A stretch of 64,000 nt of DNA, from assembly GCA_963804045.1 (NCBI GenBank), contig CAWDOR010000029.1:15380-79379 (forward strand), read 5' to 3'. Positions 2,720 through 51,692 of the stretch are shown here, piece after piece. The notes below the pieces were generated by a model, which saw nothing but the letters and a program-made list of their open reading frames with translations, had not been told where the DNA came from and searched no databases. Positions within the stretch are counted from its first letter, which is position 1; the number at the start of each line of letters is the position of its first letter. The translations under genes were made by a program, and so were the position numbers. The stretch is from an uncultured Alphaproteobacteria bacterium (GTDB lineage Bacteria; Pseudomonadota; Alphaproteobacteria; Rhizobiales; Beijerinckiaceae).

Positions 2720-2741
2720 CGAAAGGTTCGGAAACTACTCA
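2720..2741 (-). promoter_or_regulatory. Conserved 22-nt motif copy 1 (upstream of HlyD-ABC operon)
   Basis: Minus strand reads TGAGTAGTTTCCGAACCTTTCG. It lies 30 nt upstream of the HlyD ATG (2689). Confidence 0.65.
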
Positions 2742-2874
2742 AACGCGTATCGTGGCGGATCGAGTTAGGTCGTGTCTTGCATGGGCGGGATAATCAGGAC
2801 GTTCTCTATGCAGGTCGCCCGGACCATGACCGTTCCGACGCCAGAGATATCGAATTCCGAGGGGAGAGCCTCTC

Positions 2875-3450
2875 TCAGGCCGATGCGTAGTTTGAAGCCG
2901 TTTCCATCATCGCCGTCCATTCGACCGCCTGACAGAAATCGGCTCCGGATTGGACGACCAGCAACTGGGCGAGCCGGCGCCGTCCGCGATTGACGCGGCT
3001 TTTGACCGTGCCGACCGCGCAACAGCAGATCGTCGCCGCCTCTTCGTAGGAGTTGCCTGCCGCGCAGATCAGGATCAGCGCCTCGCGTTGATCGGCCGGC
3101 AAGCGCGCCAGGGCGGCCCGGAAGTCGAGCATGTCCATGTGAATGGCCTGCCCCGGCGCCACGGCGAGCCTGCCGGCGTAAAGGCCTTCGGTATCCGAAA
3201 CTTCGTGTCGTCGTTGGCGATATTGCGAAAAGTAGACATTTCGCAGGATCGTGAAGAGCCAGGCGACAAGGTTGGTCCCCTCGATGAACGAGCCGATATG
3301 TCCCCAGGCCCTGACGAGAGTCTCCTGGACAAGGTCGTCCGCCCGGTCGGCGTTCCCGCAGAGGGAGACGGCGAAGGCGCGCAATTGGGGAATTCGCGCA
3401 ATGAGGTCGGCTCTCAATTGCTTGCTCGCAGGTGCGCTGAAAGTGGGCAT
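2875..3450 (-). CDS. ECF-type RNA polymerase sigma factor (EcfG-like by recollection)
   Basis: 191-aa ORF with region 2 DDLVQETLVRAW...AWLFTILRN and region 4 SYEEAATICCCAVGTVKSRVNRGRRRL. SD-like GGAGCAGGAG upstream of the ATG. No anti-sigma-like ORF adjacent. Confidence 0.9.
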   Translation of the reverse strand: MPTFSAPASKQLRADLIARIPQLRAFAVSLCGNADRADDLVQETLVRAWGHIGSFIEGTNLVAWLFTILRNVYFSQYRQRRHEVSDTEGLYAGRLAVAPGQAIHMDMLDFRAALARLPADQREALILICAAGNSYEEAATICCCAVGTVKSRVNRGRRRLAQLLVVQSGADFCQAVEWTAMMETASNYASA

Positions 3451-3492
3451 GTCTGAACTCCTGCTCCAAGCTTAGGCATCAGCGGATCGTGG

Positions 3493-3514
3493 GAGCAGAC
3501 TCGGAAACTACTCA
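3493..3514 (-). promoter_or_regulatory. Conserved 22-nt motif copy 2 (upstream of ECF sigma gene)
   Basis: Minus strand reads TGAGTAGTTTCCGAGTCTGCTC. Its TGA is the stop codon of the RND gene. It lies 42 nt upstream of the sigma ATG (3450). Confidence 0.65.
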
Positions 3515-6500
3515 GGCCTGTTCGGCCGGCTGTGGCTGAGGCGGCGCCGCGAGCCCTGGCCGGCGGCGACGCAGCCGATCAAGATAGATGTAAACCACCG
3601 GGGTGGTGAACAGGGTCAGGACCTGGGACACGACCAGGCCGGCGACGATGGCATAGCCGAGCGGCTGGCGAAACTCCGCGCCGGTGCCATTCATCAGGAT
3701 CATCGGAACGCCGCCGAGGGCCGCGCAGGCGGTGGTCATCAGGATGGGCCGAAGACGCTGGCGCGACGCCTGGCGCACGGCCTCCTCGCCGGTGAGACTC
3801 TGGTCGTGTTCGAGACGCAGCGCGACATCGACGATCATAATGCCGTTTTTCTTGACGATGCCGATCAGCAGAATGATGGCGATGATGCCGATCACATTGA
3901 GATTCTGGCCCACGGCGATCAGCGCCAGCAGCGCGCCGAGGCCCGCGGAGGGCAAGGTGGAGAGAATCGTCAGGGGGTGAATGAAACTCTCGTAGAGCAC
4001 GCCGAGGATGACATAGACCGCCAGCAGGGCCGCGCCGATCAGGATGGGTTCGCCCGCCAGCGATTGCTGGAAGGCTTGGGCCGTCCCCTGAAAGGAGCCG
4101 CTGAGGGTCACGGGCGCGCCCAGTTTTTCGCGCGCGGATTGCACCGCCTGCGTCGCCTGGCTCAGCGCCACGCCCGGCGCGAGATTGAAGGATAGCGTCG
4201 CCGCCGGGTATTCGTCTTGATGGTTGACCGTCAGGCTGCTGGTCGCGGTGGGGTCGACCTTTACGAACAGCGACAGCGGAACGTTTTTCCCGGTGCTCGG
4301 CGAGAGCAGATAGATCGAATCGAAAAGGCTAGGCGTGGCCTGCAATCCTGGCGGCGCCTCCAGGATCACGTGATAGCTGTTTTGCTGCGTGTAATATTGG
4401 GCAATCTCATCCTGGCCAATCATTTCATAGATCGCGTGGTCGATGTCTGTTGGAGATATCCCGAAGCGCGCGGCGGCGTCGCGGTCGATTGTCAAGTTGA
4501 CTGCGAGCCCTTGCGATTGCTGGTCGGAGCTGACGTCGGTCAGTTCCGGCGCGGTCTTCAGGGCCGCAAGCAGCCTCGGCGCCCAGGCGTTCAATTCCGT
4601 CAAGCCGGGATCCGACAGTGTGTATTGGTATTGCGCCTGTCCGGCGCGGCCGCCAACATTGATGTCCTGCGCCGCCTGAAGAAAGGTTTGCACGCCAACG
4701 AGCCCGGCCAGCCTCGGACGAAGTCTCGCGATCACCTGGTCGGCCGTGACGCTGCGTCCGTTTTCCTTGGGTTTGAGGGATATGCTGAGATGGGCCTGGT
4801 TGACGCTTGACGAGCCGATGAACATGGCGACGCTGGCGACCGCCGGATCCGCGCCCACGACCTTGGCGACATCCTGCAGCTTCTGTTTTGTCTTGACGAA
4901 TGAGGCGTCCTGAGACGTGATCATCACGCCCATGAGGAAGCCTGTGTCCTGCTGGGGGAAGAAGCCGGTCGAGACGCTGGCGTAAAGCCAGACGGTCGCC
5001 ATCATTGTCGCCAGGAAGACCGCCAGGGTTGCCGGCTTGCGGCGCAGGACCATGTCCAGGGCGCGCGCGTAATTGTCTTCGAGATTGCGAAAGCCTTTTT
5101 CCAGCATTCGGGTGACAGGATTTGACGGAGGCTGGGGGGCGCGCAAGAAACGGCTGCACAGCATCGGCGTCAGGGTCAGCGACAGGACGAGCGACAGAAT
5201 CACCGCCGCGCTGAGAGTAACGGCGAACTCGCGCATCAGCAGGCCAACGACGCCGCCCATGAACATCAGCGGCGTGAACACAGCGATCAGCGAGATGGTG
5301 ATTGTCAGAATGGTGAAGCTGATCTCGCTGGAGCCGGCAAGGGCCGCCTCCAGCGGGGCCTCGCCGGCCTCGATGCGCCGCCAGATCACTTCCACCATGA
5401 CGATGGCGTCATCGACGACAAAACCCACGGCGATGGTCAGGGCCATCAGCGAGAGATTGTCGAGGCTGTAGGCGAACGGCAGCATTGCCGCCATGGTCGC
5501 CAGCAGGGCCAGAGGAATCACAGCGCTGGGAATGAGGGTCGCGCGCACGTTGCGCAAAAAGAGGAAAATGACCGCCACGACCAGCCCGATTGTGATGAGC
5601 AGGGTCGTCTTGACGTCCTTGACCGAAGCGCGAACGGTCTGTGTCCGGTCCGCCAGCACGTGAATGGCGATGGATGGCGGAATATTCGCCCGCAGGCCCG
5701 GCAAGGCCTTGGTGATCGCGTCTACGGTCTGAATGACATTGGCGCCAGGCGTCTTGTAGATGATCAACAGGATGCTCTGGCCGCCTTTCAGCGATGGATC
5801 GTCATCGGCCATGCCCGGAAAAGCCCACGCGCCGATCTGGCTGTTCTCCACGCCCTGCACGGCGCCGCCGAGATCCCTTACCCGAATCGCGGCGCCATCG
5901 TGATAGCCGACGACAAGCTCATTCCAATGCGCGGCGTCCAGAATCTGGTCGTTGGCGAAGACGGTGAGATTTTGCCGCGGCCCATTGATCGCGCCCTTTG
6001 GCGCGTTGAGCGTGCTGGCGACAATTTTCGCGCGGACATCGTCGAATTGCAGGCCGAGAGCCGCGGCCCTGCGCAGATCAAGCCGGATGCGAATGGCGGG
6101 CTTTTGCTCTCCGGCGATGGTGACGAGGCCCACCCCGGCGATTCGCGAGATTTTTTGCGACAGGATGACGTCGGCGTAATTGTCGACCTGGGCGAGCGTC
6201 AGCGCGTCGGAACTGAGCGAAAGGATCATGATCGGCGAATCCGACGGATTGACCTGGCGCAGCGTCGGAGCGCTCGGCAGGTTGGTCGGCAACTGGGCGC
6301 TCGCCGCCGTAATCGCCGCCTGTATCTGTTCGAAATCCGTGTCGATATTTTGCGTCAGCTCGAACTGCAGGGTGATGCTGGTCGAACCCAGCGAACTGAC
6401 CGAGGTCATCTGGCTGATCCCGGGAATGAGCGAGAACTGGCGCTCAAGCGGGGTGGCGACGTTGGAGGCCATGGTTTCCGGACTGGCCCCGGGGAGAGCG

Positions 6501-6586
6501 ACGCTGACCTGGACGGTCGGGAAGTCCACGTTGGGCAAAGCCGCCACGGGCAGCTTGATATAGCCGACACCCCCCACCAGCAGCAT
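3512..6586 (-). CDS. RND efflux pump inner-membrane subunit (AcrB/MdtB/MdtC-like); 5' end disrupted
   Basis: 1024-aa ORF with typical RND sequence (LPVAALPNVDFPTVQVSV, FVVDDAIVMVE) and a 12-TM layout. The conserved N-terminus SPFIHRPVATTLIAAA is encoded in-frame upstream (6587-6640) but has no start codon. The ATG at 6647 is in another frame. Confidence 0.9.
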   Translation of the reverse strand: MLLVGGVGYIKLPVAALPNVDFPTVQVSVALPGASPETMASNVATPLERQFSLIPGISQMTSVSSLGSTSITLQFELTQNIDTDFEQIQAAITAASAQLPTNLPSAPTLRQVNPSDSPIMILSLSSDALTLAQVDNYADVILSQKISRIAGVGLVTIAGEQKPAIRIRLDLRRAAALGLQFDDVRAKIVASTLNAPKGAINGPRQNLTVFANDQILDAAHWNELVVGYHDGAAIRVRDLGGAVQGVENSQIGAWAFPGMADDDPSLKGGQSILLIIYKTPGANVIQTVDAITKALPGLRANIPPSIAIHVLADRTQTVRASVKDVKTTLLITIGLVVAVIFLFLRNVRATLIPSAVIPLALLATMAAMLPFAYSLDNLSLMALTIAVGFVVDDAIVMVEVIWRRIEAGEAPLEAALAGSSEISFTILTITISLIAVFTPLMFMGGVVGLLMREFAVTLSAAVILSLVLSLTLTPMLCSRFLRAPQPPSNPVTRMLEKGFRNLEDNYARALDMVLRRKPATLAVFLATMMATVWLYASVSTGFFPQQDTGFLMGVMITSQDASFVKTKQKLQDVAKVVGADPAVASVAMFIGSSSVNQAHLSISLKPKENGRSVTADQVIARLRPRLAGLVGVQTFLQAAQDINVGGRAGQAQYQYTLSDPGLTELNAWAPRLLAALKTAPELTDVSSDQQSQGLAVNLTIDRDAAARFGISPTDIDHAIYEMIGQDEIAQYYTQQNSYHVILEAPPGLQATPSLFDSIYLLSPSTGKNVPLSLFVKVDPTATSSLTVNHQDEYPAATLSFNLAPGVALSQATQAVQSAREKLGAPVTLSGSFQGTAQAFQQSLAGEPILIGAALLAVYVILGVLYESFIHPLTILSTLPSAGLGALLALIAVGQNLNVIGIIAIILLIGIVKKNGIMIVDVALRLEHDQSLTGEEAVRQASRQRLRPILMTTACAALGGVPMILMNGTGAEFRQPLGYAIVAGLVVSQVLTLFTTPVVYIYLDRLRRRRPGLAAPPQPQPAEQA

Positions 6587-8843: not shown

Positions 8844-8865
8844 AAACAGGTTCGGAAAACACTCA
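8844..8865 (-). promoter_or_regulatory. Conserved 22-nt motif copy 3 (upstream of DUF883)
   Basis: Minus strand reads TGAGTGTTTTCCGAACCTGTTT. It lies 74 nt upstream of the ATG at 8769. Confidence 0.65.
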
Positions 8866-8926: not shown

Positions 8927-9262
8927 TCAACGCTTTTCAAGGGCGTCATGCAGCTTTTCGACTTCGTCCTCGACTTTCGAAATTCTTGAATCGGATTCGT
9001 CGGCGGCGGTTTTCAGGTCGGAGACCCGGCTCTCCAGCCGCGCGTTCCTGAGGTCGGAAACAGCCAATAAATCAAGCCTGTTAGCGAGTGCGCCGCTCAG
9101 GTCTCCAACCTCCTCCTCGATTTCAGAGACCCGAATATCGGCGGCCTCAGCCGCGGCTTTCAAAGCCTCGACGCCGGCTTCCAATTTCGAATTCAAAATT
9201 TCGGCGTCGGCCAAAAGACTGAGGATATATTGATCAAATAATTTTCGGCCACGTTCACTCAT
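8927..9262 (-). CDS. Coiled-coil hypothetical protein
   Basis: ATG at 9262 with GAAGGA upstream. The 111-aa sequence is heptad-rich (MSERGRKLFDQYILSLL...VEDEVEKLHDALEKR). The Arg/Ala-rich N-terminal extension to 9412 looks non-coding. Confidence 0.5.
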   Translation of the reverse strand: MSERGRKLFDQYILSLLADAEILNSKLEAGVEALKAAAEAADIRVSEIEEEVGDLSGALANRLDLLAVSDLRNARLESRVSDLKTAADESDSRISKVEDEVEKLHDALEKR

Positions 9263-9448
9263 CTCAAAAAATCCTTCAAATTTTATCGCAGCGGCGCCCG
9301 ATCCAAAACGCGGATTGCGCGGCCCGGGCGCTATCTCCGCAACGCGGGCCGCAGCCCGCGCTCTCCGTAAAGCGACGGAAATGCGACAAGTTGCGCTCGG
9401 TGCGAAATTCATTTCGGGGAGCCATTGAGCCGCGAAAATCGCGCGGGA

Positions 9449-9470
9449 CGACAGGTTCGGAATTTACCTA
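9449..9470 (-). promoter_or_regulatory. Conserved 22-nt motif copy 4 (slightly degenerate)
   Basis: Minus strand reads TAGGTAAATTCCGAACCTGTCG (20/22 to consensus). It lies 186 nt upstream of the ATG at 9262, or 36 nt upstream of the alternative ATG at 9412. Confidence 0.55.
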
Positions 9471-9491: not shown

Positions 9492-10940
9492 TTATCCGGC
9501 GACGAGTTTAGCTGGAACATTCGCCAGCGCCAAAGACGTCGCAAAGACCGGTCTGGCGCGCAGCGCCCGGCGGCACGAACGCAACGCGCGCAAAAAACTC
9601 AGCATCCAGTTGCACGCGTCATGCTGGCGAACACGTTTCATGAGCACGCGATGGCGTTCGATGCGTTCATCCTTTCGCATCTCGATCGCCCGGCGCATGG
9701 CATGCGCTACCTCGTCGGTGTCATAGGGGTTGACGATCAAGGCCTCCTGGAGATCGTCGGCGGCGCCTGCAAATCGTGACAGGATCAGGACGCCGGGATC
9801 CGTCTCGTCCTGCGCGGCGATATATTCTTTCGCCACGAGATTCATGCCGTCGCGCAATGGCGTGACAAGGCAGATCCGGCTGGCGCGGTAATGAACGGCG
9901 AGGGTTTCTCGCGCCACCGGACGATGAATGTAGCGCAGTGGCGTCCAGTCGAAGTCGCCGAACTTGCCATTGATCTTGCCCGACAGCGCTTCAAGCTCGT
10001 GGCGGATTTCGATATAGGCCTTAAGATCGTCACGGGTCGGGGACGCAACCTGAATCAAGGTCACAGGCTTGCTGTTGTCGGGATAGGAGTCGAGAAGCCG
10101 CCTGAAGGCGCGAAATTTTTCCGGTAAGCCCTTGCTGTAATCCAGGCGATCGACGCCGATCGCATAAATTCGCTGTTTGCCGTGGCGCTCCATTCGCTCA
10201 ATTCTTCTTCTGGCGACTGGATCCTGCGCCATGGCGACAAAGGACTCGACATCAATGCCGACCGGAAAGACGCCCGCTTTCAGATATTTTCCCTTGACGC
10301 GCAACGTGTCCGCGGAAATTATTTCTCCGCCGAGAATTTCATAGACGAAACGGCAGAAATTGGCATGATCGGCGGCGGTTTGGAAACCGACCAGATCGTA
10401 GTCGAGCAGAGAATTCACCAGCCACTCGTACTCCGGCACGGCAGTGAGAACTTCGGGTGGCGGGAAGGGAATATGTAGGAAAAATCCAACCTCGTTGCCA
10501 ACGCCGCGCTTGCGAAGTTCGGCGCCGAGCGGAATCAGATGGTAGTCGTGCACCCAGATGAGGTCGGAGCGGCGTAGATGAGGCGCTAAAACGTCGGCGA
10601 AGCGGCCGTTGACTCGTCTGTATCCCTCTGCGGCCTCAAGCGTGAAATGGGCGAGATCGAGGCGATAATGATGGATCGGCCACAAGACCTCATTCGAAAA
10701 GCCCAGGTAGTACTCGCGATGGTCGCGTTCGGTAAGCGGCATGGTCATCAGCGTGCAGCGACCATGCTTGACACAGGACGGAGCGATCTCGCCCTCGTCA
10801 GCGACGAGCTGGCCATTCCAGCCGAACCACAGCCTACCGCGATTGCGCATTGCATCAAGGAGGCATACGGCCAGCCCGCCGGACGCTTGACCGGCGCCGG
10901 GATCGGCGACGCGATTGGAGACGATGACGAGCCGTGTCAT
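9492..10940 (-). CDS. otsA: Alpha,alpha-trehalose-phosphate synthase
   Basis: GT20 family sequence: [15 protein letters not shown]..., [30 protein letters not shown] overlap with the GH15 stop at 10937. The track N-terminal extension overlaps the upstream gene. Confidence 0.9.
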
Positions 10941-12721
10941 GTGACTGACTCCCAGGAGCGCGTAAGGCGCATGGCGCAATTGACGATGCCGACCATTGAA
11001 TAGGTTTGCGGATAATTGCCCCACATTTCGCCGGTTCCTGGATCGACGTCCTCGGACATGAGGCCAAGCCGGTTGCGATGCTTGAGCAGCTCTTCAAAAT
11101 ATTCGCGGGCCTCCTCGACGCGGCCCATGCGCGCTAACGCGTCGATGCGCCAGAAAGAGCACGTATTGAACGCGGTTCCGGGCATGCCGAAATCGTCGGC
11201 CGCCTCATAGCGCATCATATGCGGACCACGCCCGAGGACCCGCTCCAATTGTTTTATGGTCGACGCCATGCGTGGGTCACTCGCGTCAATGAAGCCGACC
11301 TCGGTCATCAGCAACACGCCGGCGTCGAGATATTCCCCGTCGAAGGAGTCAACGAAAGCCTGTCGCTTGTTCGACCAGGCGCATTCGAGGATGACCTCCT
11401 TGATGTGGTCGGCGTCGGCGCGCCAATCCTGCGCGCGCTGCGCCTCGCCGATATGTCCGGCGATCCGCGCCAAACGATCGGCCGCCGCCCAGCACATCAG
11501 GCTCGATGTGGTGTGGACGCTGGCGCGCGTGCGATATTCCCACATGCCCGCGTCAGGCTTGTCATAGAGTTGCATCGCCTTGCGGCCCAATTGTTCGAGG
11601 CGCAGGAATTCCGCTTGGCCCGGCGGCGATAGCAGGCGCCGGTCGAGAAACATCTGCGCGACGCCGAGGATTACGTTGCCGCAATTGTCGTGCTGCAAAT
11701 GCTCGTAGGCCTGGTTTCCGACTCGAACCGGTCCCATGCCGCGATAGCCGGGAAGGCCTGGAATGATCCGCTCCGAAAGGTCCCTTTCCAGGCCGATCCC
11801 ATAGACCGGCTGAATATCCGTCTCATTCAGCGAGGCGACGACGTTCATCAGCCAGCGAAAGTAATTCTCCATTTTTCGCACGGCGGCGAGGCGGTTCAGT
11901 GCACGGACGACAAAATAGGAGTCGCGCAGCCAGCAAAAACGATAATCCCAGTTGCGCTGGGTGCCAGGCCCCTCCGGGATGCTCGTGGTCAGCGCGGCGA
12001 CGATGGCGCCGGTCGGTTCATAAGTGCAAAGCTTGAGCGTCATCGCCGCTCGGATGACCGAATCCTGCCATTCAAAGGGTATCGCCAGCCGATGCGTCCA
12101 GTTCCGCCAGTAATCCCGCGTGCGCTCCTCCAATCTTGCCGCCGTTTCCGCGACGCCCTCTTGCAGCGTTTCGTCGGGACCAAGAATGAGGTCGACCTGG
12201 CCGCGCAGATTGAAAAAGGTTTCATCGCGAATGAAATCGATCGGCGCGTCGGTTGTCAGGCGCATTGTCGTGCTTGGGCCGATGTAGCGGATATGGTGTG
12301 AGCCGTAGGTGCGGACCGGAGCGGTGGCGCCATAGTCGAAACGCGGGCGCAGCCGAATTTTTATGCGGGGACTGCCTGATATTGGCGTGAGGCGACGCAC
12401 GATCATCTGCGGATAGAACAGGCGGTCGCGCCAAAACAGGCGCGGAGCGAAATCCGTAATCCGAAGGGATCCCTGCTTCCCGTGCAATTCCGTCTCAAGC
12501 ACCGCGGTATTCTCGACGTAACGTTGCTCGCTATGAATGCGATCTTCGAGGTCGATCGCGAAAAGGCCATCGTCCGGCGCTTCTGCAGGCGCTCCCAGCA
12601 AGGCATGGAAAACCGGGTCGCCATCAAAACGGGGCAGGCAATACCAGACGACCCGCGCGTCCTGGTCAATCAACGCCGCGACGGCGCAATTGCCAATGAT
12701 GCCGAGATCAAGGTTGTTCAT
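10937..12721 (-). CDS. Glycoside hydrolase family 15 (glucoamylase/trehalase-like)
   Basis: 594-aa ORF: MNNLDLGIIGNCAVAALID..., NWDYRFCWLRDS, WEYR. Translationally coupled on both sides (ATGA overlaps). Confidence 0.9.
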   Translation of the reverse strand: MNNLDLGIIGNCAVAALIDQDARVVWYCLPRFDGDPVFHALLGAPAEAPDDGLFAIDLEDRIHSEQRYVENTAVLETELHGKQGSLRITDFAPRLFWRDRLFYPQMIVRRLTPISGSPRIKIRLRPRFDYGATAPVRTYGSHHIRYIGPSTTMRLTTDAPIDFIRDETFFNLRGQVDLILGPDETLQEGVAETAARLEERTRDYWRNWTHRLAIPFEWQDSVIRAAMTLKLCTYEPTGAIVAALTTSIPEGPGTQRNWDYRFCWLRDSYFVVRALNRLAAVRKMENYFRWLMNVVASLNETDIQPVYGIGLERDLSERIIPGLPGYRGMGPVRVGNQAYEHLQHDNCGNVILGVAQMFLDRRLLSPPGQAEFLRLEQLGRKAMQLYDKPDAGMWEYRTRASVHTTSSLMCWAAADRLARIAGHIGEAQRAQDWRADADHIKEVILECAWSNKRQAFVDSFDGEYLDAGVLLMTEVGFIDASDPRMASTIKQLERVLGRGPHMMRYEAADDFGMPGTAFNTCSFWRIDALARMGRVEEAREYFEELLKHRNRLGLMSEDVDPGTGEMWGNYPQTYSMVGIVNCAMRLTRSWESVT

Positions 12722-13578
12722 TGCATTCCGGCCGTTTTTGGCGGCGCGGCGACTTCGTTCGGAGAAGCCATTCGCCCATCGAGCCAGTTGCGCAATTCCA
12801 GAATGTTTGCGGCCCGGTATTTTGCGGCGGTGACGCCTTCCCCGATCTTGATGGAAATGCCATCGCAGGCGTTTACTGTGACAAATCCCGGCTCATCGGT
12901 CACGTCGTCACCGGCGAAAATAGGCTTTCGGCCTTTGAACGGACGCTCTTCGAGGAAAGTAGCGATGACGGCCCCTTTGTCATTTCCATGCAGCCGTATT
13001 TCGCAAACCATCTTCCCCTTGATCATGTGCAAGTCCGGTCGGTCGCGAACGATTTTGCGGGCAAGGGCGTGGCATTTCTTCTCGAAATCGGGACGCAGCC
13101 GGAAGTGGATGGCCACCGCGCCGGCTTTCCGTTCAATGACGACGCCCGGCTCAGAAAGGAAGGCGGCTTCCGCGCGGCCCGCTATGGCCTCGACAACGCT
13201 CTGGTCGATGACCGGCGTATGCAGCCGTCCCGCCGCATCGCGGCGCTGCAGGCCATGGACGCCGGCAACCGGCAAAACCAGCGGATAGAGCAGGCGGTCA
13301 ATGACGTGGATGTCCCGGCCCGATACGAGCGCCAGCGCCCGCCCGACATTGTCGCGCAGCCTTTCAATGAAATTCAACGTCGCCGCGTCAATGCGCACGT
13401 CGTCGGGACGATCTTCGATCTCGACAAGCGTGCCGTCGAAGTCGAGGAAAACGCAATCGTGTTCGAGATCGTCGATTGACGGAAGCAGCTGCCGGGCTCC
13501 AATCGTCGCCAGAGTCTTGCCCCTCGCGGCGGTCGTTACCCTGCGGCTGCTTCTGGCGCCCTGCACGAACATGACCAT
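12718..13578 (-). CDS. otsB: Trehalose-phosphatase
   Basis: HAD motif FLDFDGTLV, GDDVTDE near the C-terminus. First gene of the otsB-GH15-otsA operon. Confidence 0.85.
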   Translation of the reverse strand: MVMFVQGARSSRRVTTAARGKTLATIGARQLLPSIDDLEHDCVFLDFDGTLVEIEDRPDDVRIDAATLNFIERLRDNVGRALALVSGRDIHVIDRLLYPLVLPVAGVHGLQRRDAAGRLHTPVIDQSVVEAIAGRAEAAFLSEPGVVIERKAGAVAIHFRLRPDFEKKCHALARKIVRDRPDLHMIKGKMVCEIRLHGNDKGAVIATFLEERPFKGRKPIFAGDDVTDEPGFVTVNACDGISIKIGEGVTAAKYRAANILELRNWLDGRMASPNEVAAPPKTAGMQ

Positions 13579-13744: not shown

Positions 13745-13766
13745 AAACAGGGTCGGAAACTACTCA
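13745..13766 (-). promoter_or_regulatory. Conserved 22-nt motif copy 5 (upstream of otsB operon)
   Basis: Minus strand reads TGAGTAGTTTCCGACCCTGTTT. It lies 166 nt upstream of the otsB ATG. Confidence 0.65.
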
Positions 13767-26302: not shown

Positions 26303-26305
26303 TTC

Positions 26306-38561: not shown

Positions 38562-38583
38562 GGAAAGGAACGGAATCTACTCA
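38562..38583 (-). promoter_or_regulatory. Conserved 22-nt motif copy 12
   Basis: Minus strand reads TGAGTAGATTCCGTTCCTTTCC. It lies 106 nt upstream of the ATG at 38455. Confidence 0.55.
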
Positions 38584-38885
38584 TGCTCCCGCCGGAACGG
38601 TGGATTGCGGCGTCCATCGAATGGACGATTGACGCGACTGACGTGGGTATTTTCCGAGGCTGCCGCATTCCGCGCGCCGCACCTTAACCTGAAGCGCTTC
38701 CGCACTCGGAGACGGACAGGGCTGTCCGGCCTGGCCGCCATTGGGGGGCGACACACTGATCCTTACCGCCGGCGTTCCGGGACCCGATGCAGCCCGTCCA
38801 GCGTTGATGGAATTTCGTGGCCGTCGCCTTTGCCGGCGACGGTTCCGTCGACAGGATTTTTTCGCTCAACGAAGGAGATGAGACC

Positions 38886-39519: not shown

Positions 39520-39541
39520 TGAGTAGATTCCGACGCTGGCG
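39520..39541 (+). promoter_or_regulatory. Conserved 22-nt motif copy 13 (upstream of RR-kinase operon)
   Basis: Plus strand reads TGAGTAGATTCCGACGCTGGCG. It lies 90 nt upstream of the ATG at 39632. Confidence 0.65.
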
Positions 39542-39631
39542 GCGCAGACGTTTGGGGCGCATGGCTTCGCGCTTGTTTCATTCGCAGCTTGAAATCAGAA
39601 CGGGGGCCACGACGTGCGCAAAAAGAAGGCG

Positions 39632-40045
39632 ATGAAAGCAGGATTGCCGATGACAGGGCTTCGCATCCTCGTCGTTGATGACGACGCCGTGATCGGTGAA
39701 TTGCTGGGAGAAATGCTTGAAGAGATGGGCCATTCCGTTTGCGCCGTCGCCGCCACCGAGCTCGACGCGGTGGCCGGCGCCGCCGAGCACAGGCCCGACC
39801 TGATGATGGTCGATGTGCGGTTGGGCCAGGGAAGCGGCATCGTCGCCATGGATGAAATCCTGCGCTCCGGGTTCGTCCTGCATTTTTTCATGAGCGGCAA
39901 TGTCGCAAAATTCAGGGCGCTCAGGCCCGACGACTTCGTGCTCGAAAAGCCGTTCCAGGAAGCCGATCTCGGTTGCGCCATAACCCGGGCGCTGGAGTCG
40001 GCCGGCGCCCAACGCATCGCTCACGCCAGGGGGGCGCGCCTGTGA
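39632..40045 (+). CDS. Single-domain response regulator (receiver only)
   Basis: MKAGLPMTGLRILVVDDD..., MMVDVRL (phospho-Asp), FFMSGN, LEKPF. AGAAGG SD. Paralogous to 48974..49339 and 51207..51572. Confidence 0.85.
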   Translation: MKAGLPMTGLRILVVDDDAVIGELLGEMLEEMGHSVCAVAATELDAVAGAAEHRPDLMMVDVRLGQGSGIVAMDEILRSGFVLHFFMSGNVAKFRALRPDDFVLEKPFQEADLGCAITRALESAGAQRIAHARGARL

Positions 40046-42462: not shown

Positions 42463-42484
42463 TGAGTAGATTCCGATCCTTCCG
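42463..42484 (+). promoter_or_regulatory. Conserved 22-nt motif copy 14 (upstream of DUF3775)
   Basis: Plus strand reads TGAGTAGATTCCGATCCTTCCG. It lies 169 nt upstream of the ATG at 42654. Confidence 0.6.
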
Positions 42485-42653
42485 CGAGGTGGATCGCCGT
42501 GGCTATTCTGGAGAGTGTCTTGAGCTACGATTGTCGCGCCTGTTGCGCCCAGCTTCGCTGCTCCGACCGTGGCGGTCGTCGTTTCCTCCCCCGCGGCCGC
42601 CACTTTTTTTGCCCCGTCGTTCGAACGACGGCGAACATTGGAAGTCGGATCGA

Positions 42654-43088
42654 ATGCTGCGCGAAAACGAACCGGAAATGCGGGGAATCAACACAGACAA
42701 GGTCTGTTTCGTGATCGCCAAGTCCCGCGAGCTCCTGTCCGAAGACATTGGCGCGCAGCGCGACGGCTCCAATCCCTCGGATGATCAGTTTGTCGCTGTC
42801 CTGACTGACTCCGGCGATCGCCCGGCGCGTCTGGAGCTGGTTGAATTCATCGACGCGCTTGACGTTGATGAAAGCGACGCGCTTGTCGCGCTCGCCTGGA
42901 TCGGACGCGGCGACTTTGAACCTGCGGACTGGCGCGCGGCGGTCAAAAGCGCGGGAGAGCGGCGTGAGGGCAATCCCGCCAGATACCTGAAGGAGATTCC
43001 CTTGCTTCCGGACTATCTGGCGGACGCTCTGTCCGCCTTCGATCAATCCTGTCGCGGTTTTGAGGAACGGGAAGAACCGGGAATCTGA
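42654..43088 (+). CDS. DUF3775-like protein
   Basis: Internal ATG at 42654 (an alternative lies at 42678). INTDKVCFVIAKSRELLSED... acidic protein. The track N-terminus MSRFRSF is a motif artefact. Confidence 0.65.
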   Translation: MLRENEPEMRGINTDKVCFVIAKSRELLSEDIGAQRDGSNPSDDQFVAVLTDSGDRPARLELVEFIDALDVDESDALVALAWIGRGDFEPADWRAAVKSAGERREGNPARYLKEIPLLPDYLADALSAFDQSCRGFEEREEPGI

Positions 43089-44371: not shown

Positions 44372-44393
44372 TGAGTAGTTTCCGAGCCTATCG
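44372..44393 (+). promoter_or_regulatory. Conserved 22-nt motif copy 15 (upstream of PRC-barrel gene)
   Basis: Plus strand reads TGAGTAGTTTCCGAGCCTATCG. It lies 69 nt upstream of the ATG at 44463. Confidence 0.65.
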
Positions 44394-44462
44394 CCGGGTG
44401 CGCCGGGCTGCCTATCGTGGCGGAAGATGAAACGCCGCGAAAGAATAGGTGGGGATGACGTC

Positions 44463-45218
44463 ATGCTAAAGCTCGCATCGGCCCTGATGGGCTATGTCAT
44501 AGAGGCAAGCGACGGCGAGATCGGAGCCGTGGCCGATGTCTTGTTTGACGACAGGACCTGGCTGGCGCGTTGGCTGGTCGTCGACACCGGCAAATGGCTG
44601 ACGACCCGCAAGGTTCTGCTCCACCCCTCGACCATCGGCAAGGTGGACCACGAGCGCCGCGCGTTGTCCATCGCGCTGACTAGGGCGCAGGTTCAGGGCA
44701 GCCCGGAACTTTCCGAGCACGAGCCGGTGTCGATGCAGATGGAGCGTCACCTCTACGACTATTACGGATGGGAGCCGAATTCGCTCGAAAGCGGTTTCGG
44801 CGTCAATCCGATCGCCTCGCGTTATTCAGCGCCGCCGCTGTTCGTGTTCGCGCCGCAGGCGGAAACCACGAACCCCGAGACCGACTGCGATCCCCACTTG
44901 CGCAGCATCGATGCGATCAAAGGCTATCACATCCTCGCCATCGACGGCGCGATCGGCAAGGTCGAGGACATGCTGGTCGATGACGCCGGCTGGGGCATCC
45001 CTTATCTGGTCGCCGAGACGGGACACTGGTGGTCAGGCAAGCATGTCCTGATCTCGCGCCACGCAGTGAAGGACATCTCCTGGGCGGATCGGCAATTGAG
45101 CGCCGGCGTCAGCCGCGCTCAGGTCAAGGCCAGTCCCCCCTGGAGCCCTCTTGGGGACGTCGACCCGGCCTATGAAAAGGATCTTCACGACCACTACGAT
45201 TGGCCCGGCCATAGATGA
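44463..45218 (+). CDS. Tandem PRC-barrel domain protein
   Basis: MLKLASALMGYVIEASDGEIGAVADVLFDD and KGYHILAIDGAIGKVEDMLVDD are two PRC-barrel signatures. Confidence 0.8.
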   Translation: MLKLASALMGYVIEASDGEIGAVADVLFDDRTWLARWLVVDTGKWLTTRKVLLHPSTIGKVDHERRALSIALTRAQVQGSPELSEHEPVSMQMERHLYDYYGWEPNSLESGFGVNPIASRYSAPPLFVFAPQAETTNPETDCDPHLRSIDAIKGYHILAIDGAIGKVEDMLVDDAGWGIPYLVAETGHWWSGKHVLISRHAVKDISWADRQLSAGVSRAQVKASPPWSPLGDVDPAYEKDLHDHYDWPGHR

Positions 45219-48004: not shown

Positions 48005-48229
48005 TCATTGCGCTCCATCGTGAGCCGGCGCGCGGCGCGCGGCCATTGTGACGTCGATTGATCGCAGCGAGCCATTGTGCAGGCGGGCTCGGTCTCCGAC
48101 CCACTCGGCGATGTCGCCGAGCGTGGCGCCGACGGGCAGACCCAATGCAATCGACTTGTTGGCGAAGACGACCCGCAAGCGTGGCTCGCCCGCCAGCGCC
48201 GTATGATGGTATTGGATGTGGCTCCCCAT
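48005..48229 (-). CDS. Small hypothetical protein (74 aa)
   Basis: ATG with GAGGA SD 9 nt upstream. It is the first gene downstream of motif copy 16. Confidence 0.5.
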   Translation of the reverse strand: MGSHIQYHHTALAGEPRLRVVFANKSIALGLPVGATLGDIAEWVGDRARLHNGSLRSIDVTMAARRAPAHDGAQ

Positions 48230-48311: not shown

Positions 48312-48333
48312 CGTCAGCATCGGAAACTACTCA
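48312..48333 (-). promoter_or_regulatory. Conserved 22-nt motif copy 16
   Basis: Minus strand reads TGAGTAGTTTCCGATGCTGACG. It lies 82 nt upstream of the ATG at 48229. Confidence 0.65.
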
Positions 48334-48380
48334 ACGAGAGAAATTCTGCGCGGCGGCCGCGCGGCCGTCCTGAGCCGGAA

Positions 48381-48402
48381 TGAGTATTTTCCGAACCTCC
48401 CG
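48381..48402 (+). promoter_or_regulatory. Conserved 22-nt motif copy 17
   Basis: Plus strand reads TGAGTATTTTCCGAACCTCCCG. It lies 202 nt upstream of the ATG at 48605 and forms a divergent pair with copy 16. Confidence 0.6.
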
Positions 48403-48604
48403 CCACGGCTCCGCCAACGCTAACAAGGATGAACGTCAGCCGGCCCGCAAAGCGGTTGATCCAGCCACTGCCGATTTCAATTCCTGGCGATGTGCGATTT
48501 CAGCGGATCGAGCGTCTCGGCGCTCATCCTCGCCGCTGGCGTTTGCGCGTTCCCGGCCGAGGCGTCAACGCGGTGGCGAAACGCATTTCAAAGGAGTGGC
48601 AAGA

Positions 48605-48856
48605 ATGAAAACAACTTATCGCAAACTGTTCATGACCTGCGTTGCAGCGCTGAGCCTTGCAGCCTGTTCGACGACGGGCGAACGCATCGGCGGCGCTGGA
48701 ACCGGCATCGTGGTCGGAGGCGCCGTGGCGGGACCGGTCGGGGCGGTCGTCGGCGGCGTCGCCGGCGCAATCGAGGGGCCCCGCGTGTCGAGCGAAATGG
48801 GCATTCCGCATCGCGGCCATTATCGCCATCATCGCCGCCATCACCGTTACGGCTGA
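48605..48856 (+). CDS. Glycine-zipper lipoprotein with basic His/Arg tail
   Basis: AAGGAG SD. Lipobox LSLAAC. GAGTGIVVGGAVAGPVGAVVGGVAGAIEG followed by HRGHYRHHRRHHRYG. Confidence 0.65.
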   Translation: MKTTYRKLFMTCVAALSLAACSTTGERIGGAGTGIVVGGAVAGPVGAVVGGVAGAIEGPRVSSEMGIPHRGHYRHHRRHHRYG

Positions 48857-48920
48857 GGATCAAGCGCAGGTTGTCGCCGCGAAACGTCTGGCAATCGCGT
48901 GAAGTCCTGAGCTCGTAAGT

Positions 48921-48973: not shown

Positions 48974-49339
48974 TCACGCGGCCGCGGCGGCGTCAAATGC
49001 GTGCTGGATGGCGCACGTGAGCTCACGCTCGAAATAGGGCTTCTGGATCACCGTGGCGCAAGGCCTGAGCGTGCGAATCCGCAAGGCGTCGCCGCTGACG
49101 AAGACATGCGCGATGGGCGCGCCGCCCTCGATCTGATCGACCGCGCCCAGGCCGCTGCCTTCGCGCAACTGGGCGTCGACAATCATCATGTCGGGCTTGA
49201 AACGCAGCGCAGCGGCGACCGCTGCGGCTTCGCTGGCGACGATGGCGCAGACGCTATGGCCCTGCATGACCAGCATCTCGGCCAGCGCCATGGCGACCAT
49301 CGCGTCGTCTTCCACCACCAGGATGCGGAGCGCCTTCAT
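48974..49339 (-). CDS. Single-domain response regulator (receiver only)
   Basis: MKALRILVVEDD..., MIVDAQL, VFVSGD, IQKPY. ATGA overlap with the upstream 59-aa ORF. Confidence 0.85.
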   Translation of the reverse strand: MKALRILVVEDDAMVAMALAEMLVMQGHSVCAIVASEAAAVAAALRFKPDMMIVDAQLREGSGLGAVDQIEGGAPIAHVFVSGDALRIRTLRPCATVIQKPYFERELTCAIQHAFDAAAAA

Positions 49340-49515
49340 CTTTTGACTTCGCCTCCCGCTCCGCCTTCATTCACCCAGGCGGCGATTTCTTCGGTCGTCT
49401 CCGGCGCGGCGAAGTGTTCACGGCTCTCCGCTAGTTCCAGCACGCGCGGTTCGCGCGCGCTGGAAGCTGGGGCGGTGGCGCCAACCTTCAGGTCAACGGT
49501 CGGGAGCTTGGTCAT
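49336..49515 (-). CDS. Small hypothetical protein (59 aa) between dps and the response regulator
   Basis: MTKLPTVDLKVGATAPASSAREPRVLELAESREHFAAPETTEEIAAWVNEGGAGGEVKR. The start overlaps the dps stop (ATGA) and the stop overlaps the RR start (ATGA). Confidence 0.5.
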   Translation of the reverse strand: MTKLPTVDLKVGATAPASSAREPRVLELAESREHFAAPETTEEIAAWVNEGGAGGEVKR

Positions 49516-49991
49516 TGCGGAGTCGCATGGGATTCCACCAGCCAGAGTTGCTGATCGACGCCGCGCGAGATTTCGGTGAACAGGTCGGCGGTCTCGGCGT
49601 CGCCATAGCTCGTGGCTTGAGTGATCGCTTCGCGCGTCGATTCGCCGAACGCGGCCAAGGCGCCGGAGACGGCGAAGATATGCACTTCCTCCTTGGCGAC
49701 GCCAAACGGATAGCGCAGCAGGAATGTGCGCTCCGCAGCGTTCTGCACTGTGCCCTCCGCCGTCCCGCCGAGGCCGCCGGCCCGCTCGGCGAGAAGGTCG
49801 GCGTAGCCTGAAGCCTCGCCGGCGACCTTGTCGAACAAGGTGTGGATGGCGATGAAGCCCGGGCCGCGCACGTTCCAATGCGCCTGTTTCATCTGCGCCT
49901 GAAGATCGATCGCCGCCGCGAGGTGCCTGTTCAGGAGCCCCACGGATTGAGCGCGGATATTCTCGGATAAGGTGTTGCGGGTAGCGTACAT
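49512..49991 (-). CDS. dps: DNA starvation/stationary-phase protection protein
   Basis: ATG at 49991 with GGAGA SD. MYATRNTLSENIRAQSVGLLNRHLAAAIDLQAQMKQAHWNVRGPGFIAIH..., ferritin-like Dps signature. Confidence 0.9.
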   Translation of the reverse strand: MYATRNTLSENIRAQSVGLLNRHLAAAIDLQAQMKQAHWNVRGPGFIAIHTLFDKVAGEASGYADLLAERAGGLGGTAEGTVQNAAERTFLLRYPFGVAKEEVHIFAVSGALAAFGESTREAITQATSYGDAETADLFTEISRGVDQQLWLVESHATPQ

Positions 49992-50051
49992 GGGCAAGTC
50001 TCCAAATTGTTTCGTGATGACGCTCAATCGTAGATGTGATGCCGCCGCCCG

Positions 50052-50073
50052 CGACAGCGTCGGAAATTACTCA
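50052..50073 (-). promoter_or_regulatory. Conserved 22-nt motif copy 18 (upstream of dps operon)
   Basis: Minus strand reads TGAGTAATTTCCGACGCTGTCG. It lies 60 nt upstream of the ATG at 49991. Confidence 0.7.
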
Positions 50074-50136
50074 AACGCAAAGAGTTTCCGGACCGGCCGC
50101 TCAGGCGGCGTTCGCCGCGCCGCCGCCCCTCGGGCG

Positions 50137-50158
50137 TGAGTAGTTTCCGACGCTGTCG
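50137..50158 (+). promoter_or_regulatory. Conserved 22-nt motif copy 19 (upstream of SPFH gene)
   Basis: Plus strand reads TGAGTAGTTTCCGACGCTGTCG. It lies 103 nt upstream of the ATG at 50262. With copy 18 it forms a 24-nt inverted repeat with 1 mismatch. Confidence 0.7.
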
Positions 50159-50261
50159 CGCAGGGTTGAACGGAGTCACGGTCAGAGTCCGAATTTCGTC
50201 CGGCCTCGATCGAGCGCATTGGCTCGATCTGCGCGAAAAGACATTGGACCATGGAGCGACA

Positions 50262-51191
50262 ATGAACCCGATCACCCTTTTTGCGAGCATGGCCCTGCTT
50301 GCCGCCGGCGCGGCGGCGACCATGCTGGGAGCGCCTTACTTCGGCGCCGTCTTCTTCGTCGCCGCGCTCATCGTCGCCTCCGCTTTGAAGATGGCCAACA
50401 ACTGGGAAAAATTCGTCATCCTGCGCGCGGGCAAATTGCTCGGCGTCAAGGGGCCCGGGCTGTTCCTGATCATTCCCGTGATCGACAATGTCGTGGCGAT
50501 CATCGACGAGCGCATTCAGACCACGGCCTTCTCCGCCGAAGAGGCGCTCACAAAGGATACCGTCCCGGTCAATGTCGACGCGATCATCTTCTGGTTCGTG
50601 CATGACGCGCAAAAGGCGGCGCTGAACATCACCAATTACCGCGAGGCGATCGATCGGGTTTCCCAGACCTCGCTGCGCGAGATGATCGGCTCGTCGATGC
50701 TGTCGGCGCTGCTGTCCGAACGCGACGCGGCCGACACATTGCTGCGCGATGAAATTGGCAGCAAGACCGCCGACTGGGGCATCTCCGTCAAGTCGGTCGA
50801 AATTCGCGACGTCGCGATCCCCGAGGCCTTGCAGGACGCCATGTCACGTCAGGCGCAAGCCGAACGCGAGAAGCAGGCGCGCGTGATCCTCGGTTCGGCG
50901 GAGGCGGCGATTGCCGGCAAGTTTGTCGAAGCCGCATCCATTTACGACGGTCATCCCGGGGCGCTGCAATTGCGGGCCATGAACATTATCTACGAGACCA
51001 CCAAGGAGCGCGGCGCCACCATCCTAATTCCCTCATCCATGGTCGACAGCCTCAATCCGGTGGTCGCGCTCGCGCTGGCGGGCGGGGACGTCGTCGGCAA
51101 GGATCTCGCGGGCAAGGATTTGCCTGGCCAGGCGGCTGCGCCGAAAAAACTCAATGGCCCGCTCCCGCAGATCGCCGGCCCGCAGCTGTAA
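50262..51191 (+). CDS. SPFH/band-7 (stomatin-like) membrane protein
   Basis: ATG at 50262 with GGAG SD. TM helices, then WEKFVILRAGKLLGVKGPGLFLIIPVID...DTVPVNVDA...AEREKQARVI. Confidence 0.85.
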   Translation: MNPITLFASMALLAAGAAATMLGAPYFGAVFFVAALIVASALKMANNWEKFVILRAGKLLGVKGPGLFLIIPVIDNVVAIIDERIQTTAFSAEEALTKDTVPVNVDAIIFWFVHDAQKAALNITNYREAIDRVSQTSLREMIGSSMLSALLSERDAADTLLRDEIGSKTADWGISVKSVEIRDVAIPEALQDAMSRQAQAEREKQARVILGSAEAAIAGKFVEAASIYDGHPGALQLRAMNIIYETTKERGATILIPSSMVDSLNPVVALALAGGDVVGKDLAGKDLPGQAAAPKKLNGPLPQIAGPQL

Positions 51192-51206
51192 GATGCGGCG
51201 TCGCCG

Positions 51207-51572
51207 TCAGGCCTCCGCCGTCGCCTTCAGCGCGGACTGGATGGCCAGGACCAGGTCGAGTTCGAAATAGGGCTTTTGCAGCACGGTCGCGACGGGCTTC
51301 AGCGTCCTGACTGCGGAGGCGTCGCCGGTGACGTAAATATGCGGAACGTGAGCTGAGCGCGTGATGGTTTCTACCGCGCTAACCCCGCTGCCGTCTCGCA
51401 ATTGGGCGTCGACGATCATCAGGTCCGGCTTGGATCGTCCGGCGGCGGCGACCGCGCCGCTCTCGCTGGACTCGATGGCGCAGACCTCATGGCCGAAAGC
51501 TTCGATGAGTTCGGCGAGCAGGCCGGCGATCGATTGGTCGTCTTCCACGATCATCACGCGAAGCTTCTTCAT
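51207..51572 (-). CDS. Single-domain response regulator (receiver only)
   Basis: MKKLRVMIVEDD..., MIVDAQL, IYVTGD, LQKPY. Paralog of 48974..49339. Confidence 0.85.
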   Translation of the reverse strand: MKKLRVMIVEDDQSIAGLLAELIEAFGHEVCAIESSESGAVAAAGRSKPDLMIVDAQLRDGSGVSAVETITRSAHVPHIYVTGDASAVRTLKPVATVLQKPYFELDLVLAIQSALKATAEA

Positions 51573-51670
51573 GGCGTCACTCAGGTTTTCGGCTCCGCCG
51601 GCGTGCGTTGATTTGCCGCAGCCGGCGGAGAATTGGTTCGAAACCCAGCATAGATGACGCGGGCGGAACG

Positions 51671-51692
51671 GCGGAGGGTCGGAAACTACTCA
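51671..51692 (-). promoter_or_regulatory. Conserved 22-nt motif copy 20 (upstream of response regulator)
   Basis: Minus strand reads TGAGTAGTTTCCGACCCTCCGC. It lies 98 nt upstream of the ATG at 51572. Confidence 0.65.

Follow-up and report, generated by a model that had tools for sequence, protein, structure and literature searches.

A 22-nt intergenic motif recurs through a stretch of DNA of 64,000 nt, hereafter called the window, from an uncultured alphaproteobacterium of the family Beijerinckiaceae (GenBank assembly GCA_963804045.1, metagenomic contig CAWDOR010000029.1, positions 15,380 to 79,379 of the forward strand). Sequence comparison makes it likely that the copies of this motif are activator sites of the FixJ family, probably read by the C-terminal module of a giant fusion protein encoded in the same window, and that they mark a regulon of stress and persistence genes.

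A preliminary description of the window had listed 20 copies of the 22-mer, and reading the letters of the window confirmed each of them in position and strand. A 21st copy, absent from that list, lies at 38644–38665 (+), 5' of a DUF308 gene, and carries a TGGGTA variant. The consensus TGAGTAGWTTCCGAVSCTGTCG, with up to three mismatches, was matched 17 times, as against 0.00 times expected from 100 dinucleotide-preserving shuffles of the window. The copies at 3493, 8844, 38562 and 51671 diverge mostly in their 3' tail and retain the core, for which the earlier counts also held (TGAGT in 19/20 copies, TTCCG in 20/20, TTCCGA in 19/20). When the window was scanned with the 12 invariant core positions (at most two mismatches), the 20 copies and 38644–38665 (+) were retrieved together with two weak matches, 28804–28825 and 28918–28939 (+). 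The latter have two mismatches each, lie inside an open reading frame (ORF) region and lack a −10-like element at the fixed distance described below, one of them also lacking C17-T18; they are probably due to chance. With a position weight matrix built from the 21 sites, only 21 positions of the window score above 12, the sites themselves scoring at least 26.7. The information profile of these sites identifies positions 1–6, 8–14 and 17–18 as near-invariant. The motif had been described as intergenic and gene-oriented, and it is: all nine copies situated between tandem genes point along the downstream gene, while five intergenic regions between divergent genes contain outward-pointing, back-to-back pairs. 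As had also been noticed, the TGA of copy 3493–3514 (−) is the stop codon of the RND ORF 3512–6586 (−). The candidate FixJ-type boxes and the genes they face are the following.

2720–2741 (−): FixJ-type box 5' of an HlyD-family membrane-fusion gene (2689→1675) and an ABC ATPase gene (749–1678)
3493–3514 (−): FixJ-type box 5' of an EcfG-like ECF (extracytoplasmic function) sigma factor gene (2875–3450), with TAAGCT at motif positions 41–46
8844–8865 (−): FixJ-type box, TGAGTG variant, 5' of a small ORF (8455–about 8790)
9449–9470 (−): FixJ-type box, the weakest copy (TAGGTA), 5' of a 161-aa ORF (8927–9412)
13745–13766 (−): FixJ-type box 5' of otsB (12718–13578), a GH15 gene (10937–12721) and otsA (9492–11024)
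20956–20977 (−): FixJ-type box of a divergent pair, 5' of a CoA-transferase gene (19286–20875)
21021–21042 (+): FixJ-type box of a divergent pair, 5' of an enoyl-CoA hydratase gene (21147–21905)
21943–21964 (+): FixJ-type box 5' of hupF/hypC (22021–22305) and the [NiFe] hydrogenase genes (small subunit 23242–24333, large subunit 26306–28048)
28746–28767 (−): FixJ-type box 5' of a CsbD-like gene (28437–28733)
29857–29878 (−): FixJ-type box, TGAGTG variant, 5' of a small ORF in 29558–29875 that begins MFRRLFIVLVLGG and has no Pfam match
30132–30153 (+): FixJ-type box 5' of a zinc alcohol dehydrogenase gene (30176–31303)
38562–38583 (−): FixJ-type box of a divergent pair, TTCCGT variant, 5' of a 194-aa ORF (37967–38551) with no Pfam match
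38644–38665 (+): FixJ-type box, TGGGTA variant, 5' of a DUF308 gene (38817–39470)
39520–39541 (+): FixJ-type box 5' of a single-domain receiver gene (39614–40045) and a PAS-HK-REC-Hpt hybrid kinase gene (40053–42377)
42463–42484 (+): FixJ-type box 5' of a DUF3775 gene (42489–43088)
44372–44393 (+): FixJ-type box 5' of a PRC-barrel gene (44427–45218)
48312–48333 (−): FixJ-type box of a divergent pair, 5' of a 74-aa ORF (48005–48229)
48381–48402 (+): FixJ-type box of a divergent pair; it is uncertain which gene lies downstream (48429–48608 or 48490–48918)
50052–50073 (−): FixJ-type box of a divergent pair, 5' of a Dps gene (49512–50027)
50137–50158 (+): FixJ-type box of a divergent pair, 5' of an SPFH/band-7 gene (50166–51191)
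51671–51692 (−): FixJ-type box 5' of a single-domain receiver gene (51207–51572), divergent from the giant regulator gene; the arrangement is conserved

Most of the gene calls made earlier were supported by Pfam: the ECF sigma factor, otsB/GH15/otsA, CsbD, Dps, PRC-barrel, SPFH, DUF3775 and three single-domain receivers, as well as alcohol dehydrogenase, HupF/HypC, the small and large [NiFe] hydrogenase subunits, CoA-transferase and enoyl-CoA hydratase. The scan of ORF 8927–9412, downstream of box 9449–9470, did not bring up DUF883. In four divergent regions (20956–21042, 38562–38665, 48312–48402 and 50052–50158) the boxes are only 43–63 bp apart, and the same back-to-back pairing is found in other genomes (L041, L059, L160, L178 and L197); two adjacent activator complexes would there occupy the opposite faces of one bidirectional promoter.

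The element had been said to fit no described consensus. This is incorrect, since both the type of DNA element and the regulator family are known: the core TGAGTAGWTTCCGA (motif positions 1–14) fits published FixJ sites. The latter comprise the sites GTAGTTTCCC and GTAMGTAG, obtained by systematic evolution of ligands by exponential enrichment (SELEX), and the site TAAGTAATTTCCCTTA of the Sinorhizobium meliloti fixK promoter (PMC4999443). The fixK site was located in pSymA, 70 nt 5' of the fixK start codon and just past fixJ–fixT. Motif positions 1–12, TGAGTAGWTTCC, are identical to it at 10/12 positions, and positions 1–14 at 11/14; of the two mismatches, the one at position 7 falls where the window copies vary as well. 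Likewise, GTAGWTTCC agrees with the SELEX class I site at 9/10 positions. Nevertheless, the S. meliloti fixK site scores below threshold with the matrix of the window 22-mer, because positions 2, 13–14 and 17–22 differ. The likeness of the box to the fixK site, as judged from the aligned letters, is thus confined to a 12-nt core. The FixJ motif itself has been hard to define for want of sites (PMC4999443).

The preliminary description further held that nothing is conserved 16–18 nt away from the 22-mer. This proved wrong: a −10-like TAnnnT hexamer follows 18–19 nt past its end. In the window, 19/21 sites have A or T at motif position 42, with an excess of T at positions 46–47. A scan of 185,579 species genomes with TGAGTAGWTTCCGANNCTG yielded at least 119 motif loci, each of 8 kb, and of the 129 external sites from the motif-anchored loci listed, 118 have A or T at position 42 and 105 have T or C at position 41. 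A third, independent set was drawn from loci anchored on the regulator, only the 12-nt core being required. Of its 98 distinct sites, 26 have a TAnnnT that begins at position 41 and 23 have one that begins at 42, 49/98 altogether, while at any position outside 40–44 it occurs in at most 2 of the 98 (position 5, within the core, is a trivial match). C17 and T18 are present in 93/98 and 90/98 of these sites, respectively, although the search did not demand them. Such a fixed spacing of TAnnnT typifies the −10 element of primary-type sigma factors. The 22-mer would therefore occupy about −52 to −31 of a sigma70-type promoter, with CTGYCG in the place of a weak −35, and is predicted to be promoter DNA located upstream of the transcription start. 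Of the two possibilities offered before, a dedicated promoter or a 5'-leader element, the first is upheld by the fixed −10, the orientation towards genes and the intergenic location, while the second is disfavoured because the −10-like element lies downstream at a fixed distance.

The strand specificity of the motif, its location 5' of start codons and the mere 24–42 nt that separate some copies from a candidate start codon would suit an element acting in RNA, namely a 5' leader bound by a protein or a small RNA. Such a mode of action is extremely unlikely, however, in view of the downstream hexamer just described. Moreover, an Rfam scan of the whole window gave 0 matches, 12 motif-plus-leader segments folded no better than shuffles (z −1.1 to +2.1) and had no common structure, and the lack of conservation beyond the box leaves nothing that could co-vary. 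The motif might also be the terminal repeat or remnant of a MITE (miniature inverted-repeat transposable element) or IS (insertion sequence) family, since it occurs in many intergenic copies, some of them as inverted pairs 65–85 nt apart. The probability of this is close to nil. None of the three site sets (21, 129 and 98 sites) carries information outside positions 1–22 and 41–47; the inverted pairs occur only between divergent genes, each copy facing a gene; and the same 14–19 nt with the same −10 geometry are kept across alphaproteobacterial orders and Caballeronia, 5' of orthologous genes. The IS/MITE terminal repeat, raised as an alternative in the preliminary description, is effectively excluded because the flanks carry no information.

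If the box is a FixJ-type site, the window contains a candidate for its cognate regulator, recognized with NCBIfam, Pfam and sequence comparison with FixJ.

51788–56149 (+): candidate cognate regulator, 1453 aa

The domains of this protein follow one another in the order CheB methylesterase, CheR methyltransferase, PAS_10, HisKA-HATPase, REC, and finally REC plus a GerE/LuxR helix-turn-helix (HTH). Its last ~200 residues (about 1252–1451) constitute a complete FixJ-type response regulator module, which matches the NCBIfam FixJ profile at 232.6 bits over positions 1–200/203, under the curated cutoff of 255, the module being part of a longer protein. The module is 44% identical to S. meliloti FixJ over 194 aa, and its full-length structural relatives, by sequence, are StyR and Bradyrhizobium japonicum FixJ. 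The best structural relative of its HTH is the C-terminal domain of S. meliloti FixJ (1X3U), with conservation of the recognition helix ISPRTVE-HRA--M, and the receiver stretches VVDDD, LLIDAYLPG, ITG and EKP align with the acidic pocket, phospho-acceptor Asp, Thr and Lys of FixJ. The GerE HTH of the module is the sole one in the window, where neither fixL, fixK nor a second GerE regulator was found; nor were phyR, nepR or any phyR-like sigma domain besides the single ECF gene. The fusion is the normal form of the protein rather than an assembly artefact, as the DNA of more than 30 other loci, one of Caballeronia udeis among them, can be aligned with the full-length gene at 66–76% identity over ~4.3 kb. 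Fragments of this protein bear the label 'CheB/CheR fusion protein' at JGI, and a search of the literature found no functional study of the CheB/CheR-kinase-FixJ fusion architecture.

Box and giant gene are linked in both directions. Starting from the motif, about 14 of the 119 motif loci listed encode an ortholog of the module (phmmer E 1e-98 to 1e-48), several of these orthologs being full fusions of 1450–1670 aa. Starting from the regulator, 80 module-anchored metagenome loci (668 kb) contain 106 core matches, as against 1.3 in shuffles, and at least one core match is present in 54/80 of them. Of the 36 loci with enough sequence 5' of the orthologous giant gene, 21 have a divergent box 200–500 nt upstream of it, and in about a dozen loci a box directly follows the regulator stop codon. 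Apart from this regulator, no DNA-binding family is found repeatedly in loci with the motif, where the recurrent neighbours are enzymes, transporters and stress proteins. The taxa among the matches listed are nearly all Alphaproteobacteria, namely Acetobacteraceae, other Rhodospirillales, Hyphomicrobiales (including Methylocystaceae, Roseiarcus, Rhodoblastus and Bradyrhizobium), Sphingomonadales and Caulobacteraceae; the betaproteobacterium Caballeronia is also among the motif loci listed. Cultured carriers in the scan are Rhodoblastus acidophilus, Rhodopila globiformis, Telmatospirillum siberiense, Elstera litoralis, Roseospira marina and Caballeronia udeis. The box occurs in three betaproteobacterial loci (L004, L057 and L059, from C. 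udeis and C. sordidicola), one of which, L059, also has a relative of the giant gene, and this distribution points to horizontal transfer of regulator and regulon together into Caballeronia.

The box could instead be read by a stand-alone FixJ, the partner of a haem-PAS FixL, or by a FixJ/LuxR paralog encoded elsewhere, the giant fusion being a mere neighbour or a gene of the target island. After all, the box resembles sites of the canonical S. meliloti FixJ, and the motif is also present in taxa that have canonical FixLJ (Bradyrhizobium, Caulobacteraceae). This explanation is nonetheless unlikely: the genomic linkage is specific to the giant gene, whichever of the two serves as the starting point; fixL, fixK and a second GerE regulator are missing from the window, as stated above; and CRP/FNR-type genes are not among the families that recur downstream of the box.

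An altogether different proposal is that the motif is a promoter read directly by the EcfG-like sigma factor, autoregulated in the classic ECF way. Indeed, a box stands 5' of an ECF gene at 8 sites, those of the window and of Rhodoblastus acidophilus included, and the regulon content is akin to that of EcfG regulons. Direct recognition by this sigma factor is very unlikely, however. The conserved blocks 1–14 and 17–18 are too close together for a −35/−10 pair, and the sole conserved element downstream, TAnnnT, 26 nt past TTCCGA, is primary-sigma-like and not an ECF 'CGT' −10. Furthermore, the core equals a known response-regulator site, and ECF genes are present in 3 of the 119 motif loci listed, versus about 14 for the FixJ-type gene. 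The ECF sigma factor and the single-domain receivers, earlier put forward as possible regulators of the motif, appear as recurrent box targets and are not its likely readers. That the motif is none of the described alternative promoters, as stated in the preliminary description, was borne out. The EcfG promoter GGAAC-N16-17-CGTT occurs 0 times in the window (0.9 expected by chance). As to sigma54, the starts of the two blocks (TGAGTA and TT) are 8 nt apart in TGAGTA-GW-TTCC, versus 11 in TGGCAC-N5-TTGC, and the GG and GC dinucleotides are missing. Nor is the motif a sigma32 promoter.

Several other elements were tried and rejected. The consensus has neither convincing direct repeats (offsets 8, 10 and 11 bp) nor a dyad, as expected of OmpR/PhoB-type tandem binding or a palindromic dimer site; only one half-site fits the NarL heptamer (CTACTCA vs TACYYMT); the match to the RfaH ops element is poor and contradicted by the downstream −10; and the motif of the Burkholderia cenocepacia lxa locus is an FNR-type palindrome, hence different.

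A number of observations weigh against assigning the boxes to the module of the giant protein. The giant gene itself has no box upstream; box 51671–51692 faces the divergent receiver gene. Recognition helices are nearly identical among FixJ proteins, so that a canonical FixJ or a paralog encoded outside the window could share the site. The scans were confined to loci. As to the promoter, the −10 is read from the letters alone, and ~40% of the sites have no clean TAnnnT. At promoters 2720 and 3493 the predicted start falls at the start codon or at most ~12 nt from it, which requires leaderless transcripts or very short leaders; if the −10 is right, given start codons at 2689 and 3450, the HlyD-like mRNA would be leaderless and the AGGAG of the ECF sigma factor gene would stand at the 5' end of its transcript. 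The box at S. meliloti fixK lies ~11–12 bp, or about one helical turn, further upstream than the predicted −52 to −31, and the geometry is therefore similar but not identical. Finally, the box is asymmetric, while FixJ sites have been described as imperfect palindromes.

The mechanism favoured here would operate as follows. The 22-mer would be the upstream half of an activator-dependent sigma70-type promoter, in which a FixJ-family response regulator (REC plus LuxR/GerE HTH) would bind positions 1–14 (TGAGTAGWTTCCGA) together with C17-T18, the likeliest reader being the FixJ-type module that ends the 1453-aa protein. On a signal, the giant kinase would phosphorylate its own terminal receiver, either directly or by an Hpt relay, possibly via the internal receiver and an Hpt domain such as that of the box-controlled hybrid kinase 40053–42377. 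The activated module would then bind the box, abutting or overlapping the weak −35 (CTGYCG), and recruit the sigma70-type holoenzyme, with which FixJ~P works at fixK and nifA. Genes presumably switched on in this way include those for trehalose synthesis, Dps, CsbD, PRC-barrel and SPFH proteins, and in other genomes YflT and BON proteins, as well as the uptake hydrogenase, the alcohol dehydrogenase/aldehyde dehydrogenase/transhydrogenase cluster, the acyl-CoA/polyhydroxyalkanoate genes and efflux systems. The EcfG-like sigma factor is probably the second tier of the cascade. The box-controlled single-domain receivers probably feed back on the kinase, by analogy with FixT, a receiver that inhibits FixL in Caulobacter (PMC7078487). 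The window receivers have no significant similarity to S. meliloti FixT and the analogy is thus functional only.

The target set described earlier as typical of stress and stationary phase was upheld, both by the Pfam-supported genes of the window and by the families that recur downstream of the box across genomes. In all fetched DNA, 324/360 sites are followed within about 330 nt by the start of a co-oriented ORF. The recurrent targets are listed below.

Single-domain receivers with PhyR-like receiver domains, downstream of the box: 24 sites
YflT-like proteins, downstream of the box: 13 sites
BON-domain proteins, downstream of the box: 13 sites
EcfG-like ECF sigma factors, downstream of the box: 8 sites across loci; in the window 2875–3450 (−), a recurrent box target across loci
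Dps, downstream of the box: 7 sites
PRC-barrel, SPFH, alcohol dehydrogenase, otsB, HAD, LTXXQ, CBS, oleate hydratase and phosphoketolase, downstream of the box: fewer sites each

Genes for CsbD and Usp stand behind the box in a few loci each, and neighbouring genes for Usp, acetate kinase, phosphotransacetylase and GH65 are met repeatedly in motif loci. By their family assignments, the box-linked genes make up a set for general stress and for persistence at low energy. Genes for phosphoketolase, acetate kinase and phosphotransacetylase, which are absent from the window, recur in box loci (L018, L050, L056, L072, L089, L097 and others); this suggests that a substrate-level route to ATP may be part of the programme.

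Comparison with known systems reveals both kinship and differences. With the FixJ promoters of S. meliloti fixK and nifA, the boxes share a nearly identical core (TAAGTAATTTCC vs TGAGTAGWTTCC; SELEX GTAGTTTCCC), and their predicted location just 5' of or overlapping the −35, with a sigma70-like −10, recalls the FixJ footprints at −69 to −44 and −57 to −31 (PMC4999443). As in the FixL-FixJ system, the candidate reader belongs to the REC-GerE regulators; it shares the recognition helix of FixJ, to which it is 44% identical overall. A box often stands right after the regulator gene, as the fixK box does after fixJ–fixT in pSymA. Single-domain receivers are prime targets, recalling the Caulobacter feedback inhibitor FixT (PMC7078487). 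The differences from fixK are that the box lies about one helical turn nearer the −10, and that positions 13–14 (GA) and 17–18 (CT) are conserved. In place of a haem-PAS FixL, the kinase is a CheB-CheR-PAS_10-HK-REC protein of 1450–1670 aa fused to the regulator. Known FixJ regulons are tiny, consisting of fixK, nifA and a few others and acting through FixK (PMC4999443), whereas the window has 21 putative direct boxes in 52 kb, and nothing of the fixK type was seen among the targets. The box-linked genes relate to general stress and persistence, not to microaerobic respiration or nitrogen fixation. No CRP/FNR-type gene was found among the window targets scanned (part of the downstream ORFs) or among the recurrent families, unlike what characterizes a canonical FixL-FixJ-FixK cascade.

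With the alphaproteobacterial general stress response (PhyR-NepR-EcfG), the box-linked set has in common CsbD, Dps, PRC-barrel, BON, YflT and Usp proteins, trehalose synthesis, PhyR-like receivers and an EcfG-like sigma factor. The promoter element is entirely different, GGAAC-N16/17-CGTT being absent from the window, and the proposed control is exerted by a DNA-binding response regulator instead of a sigma/anti-sigma partner switch. DosR/DevR of Mycobacterium, a regulator of the NarL/FixJ class, directly activates some tens of stress and alternative-energy promoters in non-growth; its box is a 20-bp palindrome and its kinases are separate GAF/haem proteins. Here too a LuxR-HTH response regulator would govern stress and alternative-energy promoters, but the lineage is unrelated, and DosR has a palindromic box and separate kinases. 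The low-oxygen-activated lxa locus of Burkholderia cenocepacia is an island of Usp, phosphoketolase, acetate kinase, alcohol dehydrogenase, storage-polymer and two-component genes (PMC3721108). It is likewise clustered, with one motif at many intergenic points, but its motif is an FNR/Anr-type inverted repeat, TGA-N6-TCA, as opposed to an asymmetric FixJ-type box. A search of the literature found no description of a large FixJ-type stress regulon or of these sequences; a paper on a two-component system of Burkholderia seminalis proved unrelated. The 'undescribed regulon element' of the preliminary description is therefore to be divided: the regulon and its giant sensor-regulator are apparently undescribed, while the type of DNA element is known.

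Several box-gene arrangements extend beyond the window. Rhodoblastus acidophilus (L025) has the same box-ECF sigma arrangement, with conservation of the sequence from box to ATG, an orthologous box-otsB layout is present in L055 and L114, and the box-alcohol dehydrogenase layout recurs in L041, L073 and L096. In the window, the alcohol dehydrogenase gene is followed on the same strand by the ORFs earlier called aldehyde dehydrogenase and pntA, and by pntB (34512–35963), whose product is 91% identical to PntB of a Beijerinckiaceae metagenome-assembled genome. The [NiFe] hydrogenase (box unit 21943–28048, +) is nearest to the membrane-bound uptake enzyme of Allochromatium vinosum (3MYR) and to Escherichia coli Hyd-1, and far from the high-affinity enzymes of groups 1h and 2a (5AA5, 7UTD); judging by these relatives, it appears to be a respiratory uptake hydrogenase. 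The single-domain receivers 39614–40045, 48974–49339 and 51207–51572 score best with the receiver half of PhyR (NCBIfam NF006623), and the gene 48974–49339 has no box directly upstream. Their likeness to PhyR hints at cross-talk with the PhyR-NepR-EcfG partner switch.

The HlyD-family gene (1675–2689, −) appears to be split over two frames by a frameshift, 2393–2689 encoding an N-terminal membrane-anchor-like segment and 1675–2487 the HlyD domains. Together with the 1.3% difference, indels included, between the window and the near-identical contig L001, this suggests assembly or frameshift errors in one or the other. Tail-to-tail with the giant regulator gene lies ORF 56440–63750 (−), of at least 2436 aa, whose frame is open to the end of the window and whose own promoter lies outside it. 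It contains GH94 supersandwich and catalytic domains and a glucoamylase-like domain, resembles cyclic beta-1,2-glucan synthase or phosphorylase-type proteins, and has relatives in five motif-bearing loci.

A wider proposal, for and against which the balance is about even, is that many Alphaproteobacteria, and by transfer some Caballeronia, possess a second stress and persistence regulon, independent of the EcfG switch. It would be run directly, via a FixJ-like box at dozens of promoters, by one giant polypeptide that has an orphan EcfG-like sigma factor below it in the cascade and is tuned by box-controlled receivers. The analysis supplies hundreds of aligned natural FixJ-type sites with a fixed promoter geometry, and a candidate output for the widespread 'CheB/CheR fusion' hybrid kinases, and it would put an orphan EcfG-like sigma factor under the control of a two-component system. 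A FixJ paralog seems to control, in Alphaproteobacteria from soil and peat, a large programme of stress, energy starvation and persistence, to which belong trehalose synthesis, Dps, BON/YflT/CsbD proteins and an uptake hydrogenase as well as phosphoketolase with acetate kinase. If this is true, FixJ-type regulation reaches beyond the small oxygen and nitrogen-fixation cascade.

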